Shown in pieces: positions 18,781 to 19,090 of a stretch of DNA of 35,471 bases. Position 1 is the stretch's first letter. Each line of letters starts with the position of its first letter. The stretch is from a virus. The stretch lies in the UHGV virus genome UHGV-0047541. One strand, written 5' to 3'. The notes beneath the pieces were generated by a model. That model worked only from the letters and a program-made list of their open reading frames with translations. It had not been told where the DNA came from and did no database searches. Both the position numbers and the translations under genes were made by a program.

Positions 18781-18855
18781 TGGAGCGGGTAGCGGGAATC
18801 GAACCCGCATCATCAGCTTGGAAGGCTGAGGTAATAGCCATTATACGATACCCGC
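18781..18855 (-). tRNA. tRNA-Gly (anticodon UCC)
   Basis: 75 nt, GCGGGTATCGTATAATGGCTATTACCTCAGCCTTCCAAGCTGATGATGCGGGTTCGATTCCCGCTACCCGCTCCA; cloverleaf folds; anticodon loop CUUCCAA; CCA encoded. Confidence 0.8.
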
Positions 18856-18858
18856 ATA

Positions 18859-18934
18859 TGGTGCCGACTACCGGAATCGAACTGGTGACCTACTGATTAC
18901 AAGTCAGTTGCTCTACCTACTGAGCTAAGTCGGC
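18859..18934 (-). tRNA. tRNA-Thr (anticodon UGU)
   Basis: 76 nt, GCCGACTTAGCTCAGTAGGTAGAGCAACTGACTTGTAATCAGT...AGTCGGCACCA; anticodon loop CUUGUAA; one mismatch in T stem. Confidence 0.7.
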
Positions 18935-18936
18935 AC

Positions 18937-19013
18937 TGGACCGCCACCGGAGACTCGAACCTCGCACACTCAACTTAAAGGGTTGATGCTCTTCCCTGAT
19001 GAGCTAGTGGCGG
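18937..19013 (-). tRNA. atypical tRNA-like gene (anticodon loop CCUUUAA, putative UUU/Lys, C at position 33; possible pseudo-tRNA)
   Basis: 77 nt with 7-bp acceptor stem CCGCCAC/GTGGCGG, D and anticodon stems, TTCGAGT T-loop, encoded CCA; non-canonical C33 and T-stem mismatch. Confidence 0.5.
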
Positions 19014-19014
19014 T

Positions 19015-19090
19015 TGGTGGCCCTTGCTGGATTTGAACCAGCGACCTGGCGATTATGAGTCGCTCGCTCTCACCACTGAGCTAAAGGGCC
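19015..19090 (-). tRNA. tRNA with CAU anticodon (ileX/ileZ-like tRNA-Ile2, formally Met)
   Basis: 76 nt, GGCCCTTTAGCTCAGTGGTGAGAGCGAGCGACTCATAATCGCCAGGTCGCTGGTTCAAATCCAGCAAGGGCCACCA; close to recalled E. coli ileX. Confidence 0.8.

Follow-up and report, generated by a model that had tools for sequence, protein, structure and literature searches.

We analysed a 35,471-nucleotide (nt) stretch of viral DNA, the virus genome UHGV-0047541 (hereafter the window, meaning this whole stretch), and concentrated on an array of four transfer RNA (tRNA) genes between positions 18781 and 19090. The second of these genes in the order of transcription, here called tRNA 2, combines an arginine-type body with the anticodon UUU and a C at position 33. 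The reading that we favour, tentatively, is that tRNA 2 was recruited from arginine to lysine and, lacking the motifs by which the nucleases AriB and P2-OLD recognize their targets, would serve as a nuclease-insensitive lysine decoder. The window itself is a lambda-like prophage, with head and tail genes about 94% identical to those of lambda and of phages induced from ECOR13. The window contains no flanking host DNA. Its best matches among Escherichia coli and phage sequences are 93-96% identical, and these similarities indicate that the host is probably Escherichia or a close relative.

A four-tRNA array with an unusual second gene

Exactly four tRNA genes were called by ARAGORN in the whole 35.5-kb window, all of them on the minus strand:

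19015..19090, minus strand: tRNA 1, Ile2 type, anticodon CAU, ileZ allele, first gene of the operon (ARAGORN; Rfam 72.5 bits)
18937..19013, minus strand: tRNA 2, the odd tRNA, argN-family body, anticodon UUU (ARAGORN; Rfam 39.4 bits)
18859..18934, minus strand: tRNA 3, Thr(UGU), exact copy of host thrU (ARAGORN; Rfam 73.8 bits)
18781..18855, minus strand: tRNA 4, Gly(UCC), copy of host glyT with a compensated pair (ARAGORN; Rfam 65.6 bits)

The anticodons are thus transcribed in the order CAU, UUU, UGU, UCC. Spacers of 1 nt (19014), 2 nt (18935-18936) and 3 nt (18856-18858) separate the genes, each of which encodes its own CCA end, and all four match the Rfam tRNA model RF00005 (gathering score, 29 bits) over its full length. 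A preliminary description of this DNA had proposed four head-to-tail tRNAs with 1-3 nt spacers, Thr(UGU) and Gly(UCC) among them; ARAGORN reproduced the outer coordinates and both of these calls, in agreement with Rfam. The odd gene had been counted there as the third, which holds in plus-strand order, but it is the second in transcription order because the genes lie on the minus strand. Since the array recurs in more than 90 IMG/VR contigs and in hundreds of E. coli genomes, it is not a product of chance, and we conclude that the late region of this lambda-like prophage contains a genuine operon of four tRNAs.

The features of a cloverleaf are present in tRNA 2: stems of 7, 4, 5 and 5 base pairs (bp), a 7-nt anticodon loop, the GG of the D loop, the TTCGA of the T loop, and U8/A14. 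Its minimum-free-energy fold is the cloverleaf; single-sequence folding (z = -0.9) is thermodynamically uninformative. The anticodon loop, CCUUUAA (C32 C33 U34 U35 U36 A37 A38), is closed by the 5-bp stem UCAAC/GUUGA and departs from the U33 that characterizes tRNAs. The first pair is C1-G72 and the discriminator is U73, while the T stem, CGAGG/CUCCG, contains an A51·C63 mismatch and a G52·U62 wobble. The loop with C33 and the T-stem mismatch had both been reported in the preliminary description, which called the UUU tRNA atypical, and with C33, A51·C63 and U73 the term is apt.

Such a combination could be read as a loss of function. An argN-type tRNA-Arg would then have decayed into a pseudo-tRNA through hits in the anticodon loop and the T stem, and would have persisted by sitting between useful tRNAs in a compact operon spread by prophage recombination. 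This is the main rival reading, in our view only a little less probable than recruitment. The UUU clade does combine C33, A51·C63 and U73 with the loss of C35, a determinant for arginyl-tRNA synthetase (ArgRS), and tRNA 2 has the lowest covariance score of the array. Yet its 39.4 bits (full-length match, model positions 1-71) exceed the 29-bit threshold, below which the score should have fallen for the preliminary description's reading to be refuted, and the cloverleaf is intact but for one mismatch, so that neither mark of a pseudogene, a sub-threshold score or a broken cloverleaf, is found. The arginine members of the same family score 45.4 and 43.0 bits, only 4-6 bits more, so small is the cost of the two loop changes; because low scores run through the argN family as a whole (43-45 bits in its Arg members), that of tRNA 2 is not evidence of decay.

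Descent of tRNA 2 and of its neighbours

In a prophage of E. coli M19, the corresponding array slot holds a tRNA-Arg(UCU) with which tRNA 2 shares 85.7% identity. Its identity is 80.5% to argN (UCG) of an Stx2 phage, as against 51.9% to host lysT and 52-55% to the tRNA-Lys of the host, T5 and slur09. As in the argN family, it follows an ileZ-identical gene after 1 nt and shares C1-G72 and U73. It departs from that family in its anticodon, UUU instead of an arginine anticodon (UCG or UCU, with C35). Compared with tRNA-Lys(UUU), it has U34, U35 and U36 but lacks both homology to the Lys-type body and A73, the discriminator of the lysT, T5 and slur09 genes. Judged from these alignments, tRNA 2 is not of lysine type by descent and derives from the argN/Arg-UCU family, from whose UCU members it is separated by two loop changes, U33C and C35U.

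To describe this family, 230 loci were compiled from two IMG/VR scans (the matches listed) and from annotated hits. Four array types recur among them: CAU-UUU(C33)-UGU-UCC, as in the window (at least 96 loci), CAU-UCU-UGU-UCC (at least 18), CAU-UUU(C33)-UCU, the PPompW type (at least 13), and CAU-UCG-UCU, the Stx type (at least 11). In the 24 distinct family sequences, 96.6% of the stem cells pair, with both-sided changes at 3-70, 7-66, 30-40 and 51-63, and cloverleaf pairing exceeds that of all 500 shuffles and of all slid controls. The argN-type family is therefore a genuine tRNA family. Among the loci listed, every UUU member carries C33, and the single-step intermediates CUUUUAA and CCUCUAA on the tRNA 2 stem gave 0 matches in IMG/VR; this strict coupling of the two loop changes speaks against piecemeal decay. 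Of the stem changes within the UUU clade, 5 of 6 preserve pairing as G·U wobbles, which points in the same direction without being significant. Among species-representative genomes, the family on the tRNA 2 stem was found only in E. coli and Shigella flexneri.

The CCUUUAA allele is common. A 40-mer spanning the loop was present in at least 738 of 5,426 complete E. coli genomes, while the commonest UCU sister was found in 10; that the allele is so much more frequent than its intact Arg sister speaks against a mere relic. The allele also occurs in the isolated phages vB_EcoM-606R7, vB_EcoS-689R5 and PhiR47_1. The intact 77-nt form is annotated as tRNA-Lys by the pipeline PGAP, which leaves the form in PPompW and E2348-69 uncalled. 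The latter has a 1-nt deletion in the D stem and is undetected by Rfam at E <= 0.01; those copies do bear this mark of a pseudogene.

The array as a whole resembles the ileZ-argN-argO cluster of Stx-converting and related lambdoid phages, which lies at the corresponding genomic site, with Q and the late terminator ahead of it and the stx/lysis genes behind it, and has the same conserved promoter block directly upstream. The anticodon loop of tRNA 2 (CCUUUAA) differs from that of argN (CUUCGAA) and of the Arg-UCU sisters (CUUCUAA), and argO is replaced in the window by copies of host thrU and glyT. The preliminary description had set the array apart from the ileZ-argN-argO set altogether; this cannot be upheld, as positions 1 and 2 are ileZ and argN homologues and only argO has been exchanged. 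Its view that the CAU tRNA is ileX-like fared better. tRNA 1 is identical at 76/76 positions to genes that PGAP names tRNA-Ile (ileZ) in O157:H7, where ileZ is prophage-borne, and in many other E. coli, and it is 89.5% identical to the chromosomal ileX-type gene of the host. It is also the most conserved member of the array, identical in 86 of the 96 loci listed.

tRNAs 3 and 4 come from the host. tRNA 3 is identical to E. coli thrU (76/76), and tRNA 4 matches host glyT at 73/75 positions, the two differences forming one compensated pair (C6-G67 to U6-A67). Of the 96 related loci listed, 10 have this compensated glyT allele, and each of the two changes is found alone in a single locus. In the host, the operon reads thrU-tyrU-glyT-thrT-tufB. 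The phage copies keep the host order of thrU and glyT but lack tyrU and the 8-nt and 116-nt spacers, with 3 nt between the genes, and thrT and tufB are absent from the phage array. Comparison of 18781-18934 (minus strand) with the host operon points to capture of host tRNAs followed by a clean loss of tyrU. On sequence grounds, then, the array consists of ileZ, an argN derivative and two captured host tRNAs.

One lineage (5 IMG/VR loci and 6 E. coli genomes) deserves separate mention. Its thrU copy has the anticodon UUU in the loop CUUUUAA, with A73, so that it carries two UUU tRNAs and no Thr(UGU); its tRNA 2 has U8C, a repaired T stem and G73. This single event, anecdotal as it is, favours selection for a phage-borne UUU tRNA.

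The C33-UUU loop, proposed lysine decoding and defence nucleases

The proposed recruitment would have proceeded as follows. tRNA 2 would have begun as an argN-family tRNA-Arg(UCU), and the changes U33 to C and C35 to U would have converted its anticodon loop to UUU. ArgRS depends on C35 and A20, and lysyl-tRNA synthetase (LysRS) depends chiefly on U35, together with U34, U36 and A73. Because LysRS reads mainly the UUU anticodon and ArgRS needs C35, the identity would have moved from arginine to lysine. Substitutions of U33 reduce, but do not abolish, the function of a tRNA on the ribosome. There is a laboratory parallel: Saks, Sampson and Abelson (Science 1998) reportedly turned E. coli tRNA-Arg(UCU) into a working tRNA-Thr by one anticodon change. 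That system shares with the present one the Arg(UCU)-type body and the change at position 35, from UCU to UUU here; it differs in that UCU was engineered to UGU (Thr) under laboratory selection, whereas the allele in the window is natural and has also changed at position 33. The N6-threonylcarbamoyladenosine (t6A) modification of A37 should remain possible, given that 36-UAA-38 is retained; in bacteria, t6A synthesis requires this motif and makes no base-specific contact with U33 (PMC13276492).

The body and anticodon stem of tRNA 2 are foreign to host tRNA-Lys. Three nucleases are of interest here. AriB of PARIS, the first, needs U36AAUC|A41, its cleavage being abolished by U39A and impaired by A41C and U16C (PMC12409363). 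tRNA 2 has the UUU anticodon of the prime AriB target but reads UAAGUU at positions 36-41, compared with UAAUCA in the host, and has C16 in place of U16, as far as a comparison of sequences goes. For P2-OLD, the anticodon stem must carry paired CNG motifs (PMC12445682), and the tRNA 2 stem UCAAC/GUUGA contains none. PrrC, finally, cuts 5' to the wobble base (PMC1950546), and the bond in question adjoins C33 in tRNA 2, so that the nucleotide beside the cut is altered. With its foreign stem and body and with C33, tRNA 2 could keep the decoding of AAA and AAG going when a defence nuclease destroys host tRNA-Lys(UUU). The sequences establish how the genes are built, what they are homologous to, how frequent the allele is, that the nuclease motifs are missing and that the loop recurs in lytic-phage tRNA-Lys genes; from these we infer that tRNA 2 would be expressed, charged with lysine, used in decoding and resistant to such nucleases.

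The nearest precedent in concept is the T5 tRNA-Lys that neutralizes PARIS (Burman 2024, Belukhina 2025), likewise a phage tRNA with the anticodon of the main AriB target. Like that tRNA, tRNA 2 differs from the host at the cleavage-relevant positions 39 and 41 of the anticodon stem and at position 16. The T5 gene, however, has a Lys-type body, A73 and a normal U33 loop, as against the Arg-type body, U73 and C33 of tRNA 2, and resistance and rescue, both shown for the T5 gene, are predictions for tRNA 2. By this analogy tRNA 2 would resemble the T5 anti-PARIS tRNA in concept without being a member of the T5 lineage.

A different role, without decoding, could also be imagined. tRNA 2 might be a structured RNA that acts as a processing module, a spacer for RNase P and exonucleases, or as a decoy for nucleases, modification enzymes or LysRS. 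With spacers of 1-3 nt, the fold of each tRNA defines the ends of its neighbour; the weak T stem and U73 may disfavour charging and binding by EF-Tu; and over-expressed viral tRNAs have been raised as possible competitive inhibitors in the AriB study (PMC12409363). We nevertheless think it improbable. Without the AriB and OLD motifs, tRNA 2 would be ill suited to drawing those two nucleases away; the 13-nt spacers of related arrays show that tight packing is not needed for processing; and the sequence indicates no specific partner.

The same 7-nt loop recurs elsewhere. CCUUUAA is found in the tRNA-Lys of Eps7 and slur09 (T5-like Escherichia phages) and of Riv-10 (a T4-like Aeromonas phage), all with Lys-type bodies, A73 and perfect stems. 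T5 itself was ruled out as a precedent for C33, its loop being CUUUUAA (U33), but its relatives Eps7 and slur09 do provide one. The stem-loop CGGA-CCUUUAA-UCCG was found in 32 IMG/VR contigs, representing 16 distinct tRNAs whose bodies are 55-99% identical (median, 72%) and whose acceptor and T stems are fully compensated; its U33 twin is commoner (more than 120 IMG/VR contigs). From these genes we conclude that the C33-UUU loop has been maintained over long divergence in working phage tRNA sets. Although identical in loop to tRNA 2, the lytic-phage genes differ from it in their Lys-type bodies, A73, perfect T stems and CGGA/UCCG stem. Their bodies, at 55% identity, are not homologous to that of tRNA 2, which makes the shared loop convergent. 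With an identical loop in well-formed tRNA-Lys genes of lytic phages, C33 by itself is no sign of a pseudo-tRNA, which the preliminary description had listed as one possibility beside a decoy and a functional oddity. That the two changes yield exactly the loop of divergent, intact tRNA-Lys genes speaks against decay.

The first such unrelated tRNA-Lys genes came to light in a tabulation of position 33 in all tRNAs of the fetched loci. C33 was present in 33/1227 (2.7%) of the other distinct phage tRNAs, including all 4 distinct tRNA-Val(GAC) genes. A 175-kb viral contig, IMGVR_UViG_3300020045_003677, stood out by its irregular tRNA calls, namely a CUA 'Pyl', a Met with C33 and two with the four-base anticodons GAAG and UAAA. 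Suppressor or frameshift-type tRNAs may be behind these calls, or else they may be ARAGORN artefacts.

Codon usage was compared between the open reading frames (ORFs) of the window and 42 host genes. Per 1,000 codons, AUA (7.7 in the window and 2.4 in the host), ACA (10.8 and 5.4) and GGA (13.1 and 6.0) are used two to three times more by the phage, which fits tRNAs 1, 3 and 4 as ordinary supplements for these codons. AAA/AAG are not enriched (AAA, 36.4 in the window and 34.0 in the host). The codon comparison suggested in the preliminary description thus bears out AUA, ACA and GGA but not AAA/AAG, and codon compensation was rejected as the reason for the UUU tRNA.

Nucleotide diversity was measured in 68 haplotypes and, the flanks being mosaic, was limited to pairs of haplotypes with homologous flanks. 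Divergence per site was 0.0101 for tRNA 2, 0.0085 for the downstream non-coding flank and 0.0013 for tRNA 1; the thrU and glyT copies gave 0.0081 and 0.0053, and the test has little power to separate the readings.

Several of these observations weigh against a functional lysine decoder. The discriminator is U73 and not the A73 of tRNA-Lys, and A51·C63 is present in nearly the whole UUU clade, with G52·U62 added in the window copy. Sub-lineages carry damaging-looking changes, namely the D-stem deletion of PPompW/E2348-69, which brings the gene below detection, and U8C in about 22 loci (among loci listed); both are what the pseudo-tRNA alternative would lead one to expect. tRNA 2 diverges like the non-coding downstream flank, about 8 times faster than tRNA 1, which again suits decay, but so does the thrU copy, a perfect tRNA that drifts as fast. 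Lysine codons are not enriched and AGA and AGG are: the phage uses the latter 5-7 times more than the host sample does, yet the switch from UCU to UUU gave up decoding them. Among Lys(UUU) genes not picked by the search pattern, C33 is present in 2/19, against the 33/1227 in other tRNAs, a suggestive difference that is not significant (p = 0.10). The neighbouring Thr(UGU) copy, moreover, keeps the host cleavage sites, and extra host ThrU gave no protection against P2-OLD in a published assay, so that nothing marks the complete array as an evident set of tools against nucleases. The Thr(UGU) copy was accordingly rejected as an anti-OLD or anti-PARIS rescue tRNA, being identical to the non-protective host thrU, cleavage motifs included.

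A role in recoding was considered as well. tRNA 2 might tune the -1 frameshift at G GGA AAG in the G/GT genes or, by pairing in a shifted register as UUA (U35 U36 A37), read UAA. The window does contain a lambda-type G/T tail assembly chaperone pair (2901-3323 and 2485-2919, minus strand) whose gene G contains the slippery heptamer G GGA AAG in frame zero at 2925-2919, the expected place; tRNA-Gly(UCC) and tRNA-Lys(UUU) decode its two codons, and these are the anticodons that tRNAs 4 and 2 carry. We hold this to be very unlikely all the same. GGA is generally enriched in the phage, the heptamer occurs at chance level (6 in the window, 4.6 expected), a 7-nt loop offers no structural reason for a shifted register, and the ORFs of the window bear no sign of stop-codon recoding. 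Phage lambda, besides, uses the same G GGA AAG site and is not known to encode tRNAs.

The lysine-decoder reading can be extended into a more general proposal: a natural and widespread recruitment of a tRNA in a virus, converging with lytic phages on C33-UUU, in which C33 would act as a general shield against PrrC-type nucleases that cut between positions 33 and 34, and the foreign stem would evade PARIS and OLD as well. About 1 in 7 E. coli genomes would, in that case, contain a constitutively promoted, nuclease-proof tRNA-Lys. We regard this wider version as rather unlikely.

Late-region setting and implications

On the minus strand, the array follows Q, an oppositely oriented porin gene and a hairpin with a T run, and it precedes a second hairpin, an STnc100 RNA, two TolA-C ORFs, a P21-type holin gene and a lysozyme gene. 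The features bearing on its transcription are:

20935..21333, minus strand: late antiterminator Q (Pfam PF06530, E = 2.6e-53)
19211..19235, minus strand: terminator-like hairpin and T run, AAACCCGCCATTGAGCGGTTTTTTT, upstream of the promoter; candidate tR' of the late operon, judging by its position
19100..19128, minus strand: candidate sigma-70 promoter, with -35 TTGCAA (19128-19123), a 17-nt spacer and -10 TACTAT (19105-19100), 9 nt before tRNA 1
18400..18419, minus strand: terminator-like hairpin some 360 nt beyond tRNA 4, where the tRNA transcript may end; its 8-pair stem, AACCGCCTGTTTAGGCGGTT, precedes CTTTTT

Judged by the position of Q, the array belongs to the late region that depends on this antiterminator. 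Across 146 related loci, spacer and flanks have diverged, but the hexamers TTGCAx and TATTAT persist at an unchanged distance from each other; the window has TACTAT in place of the TATTAT of its relatives. A simple consensus scan did not list this promoter, which matches the consensus at only 8/12 positions, but its conservation argues for a dedicated sigma-70 promoter. The co-transcription envisaged in the preliminary description is plausible, in view of this conserved sigma-70-like promoter directly upstream and the 1-3 nt spacers, and the operon could be transcribed both in the lysogen and through Q-dependent read-through. The stem of the upstream hairpin (19218-19231) has 4 bp, CCGC/GCGG, in the window and 5 bp, CCCGC/GCGGG, in relatives, and a terminator scan of the window did not report the hairpin (19211..19235).

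Other elements of the region were recorded. The porin gene, complete and of OmpC/Lc type (19664-20746, plus strand; PF00267, E = 8.6e-153), separates Q from the tRNA operon, an insertion comparable to nmpC in DLP12; many relatives have Q directly upstream of the tRNAs with no porin between. The STnc100-family small RNA (87.3 bits; 17913-18099, minus strand) is situated between the tRNA operon and the lysis genes. Copies also occur in the M19 prophage, upstream of its lysis region, and in phage Stx2a_F349, immediately after stx2 (2662-2835 and 3219-3301 in the fetched loci), so that the element appears to be an RNA conserved in the late region of lambdoid phages. The tRNA/STnc100 region is separated from the holin gene by two ORFs, each with a C-terminal TolA domain (17373-17801 and 16856-17251, minus strand), and a similar gene is annotated as 'tolA' in the M19 prophage. 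In the early region, two RNAs, a C4 antisense RNA (82.3 bits) and the Hfq-binding RNA isrK (59.3 bits), are adjacent at 27188-27376 (minus strand), in or beside ORF 26585-27736, an arrangement that resembles the c4-type antirepressor control of P1/P7.

The genes described here can be found in public genomes, where the intact form already goes by the name tRNA-Lys. In the literature searched, no paper discusses the loop CCUUUAA or tRNA 2, and three points appear to be undescribed there: that this 'tRNA-Lys' is an argN/Arg-UCU derivative, that its loop changes are strictly coupled, and that the C33-UUU loop recurs in the tRNA-Lys of lytic phages. If tRNA 2 were a pseudogene after all, the 'tRNA-Lys' calls in hundreds of RefSeq genomes would label an Arg-derived relic.

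Defences that cleave tRNAs (PARIS, PrrC/RloC, P2-OLD, HepS and retron effectors) and the replacement tRNAs with which phages answer them are an active topic, and this counter-measure has so far been shown mainly for large lytic phages such as T5. Should tRNA 2 prove to be a recruited lysine decoder, replacement tRNA-Lys would be held by temperate lambda-like phages too, and by 14% of E. coli genomes. A tRNA would have changed its amino-acid identity in nature by way of the anticodon. C33, usually taken for a defect, would be a solution that phages have reached repeatedly, possibly against PrrC-type nucleases. With the operon under its own conserved promoter, a lysogen might also blunt the abortive-infection systems of its host.

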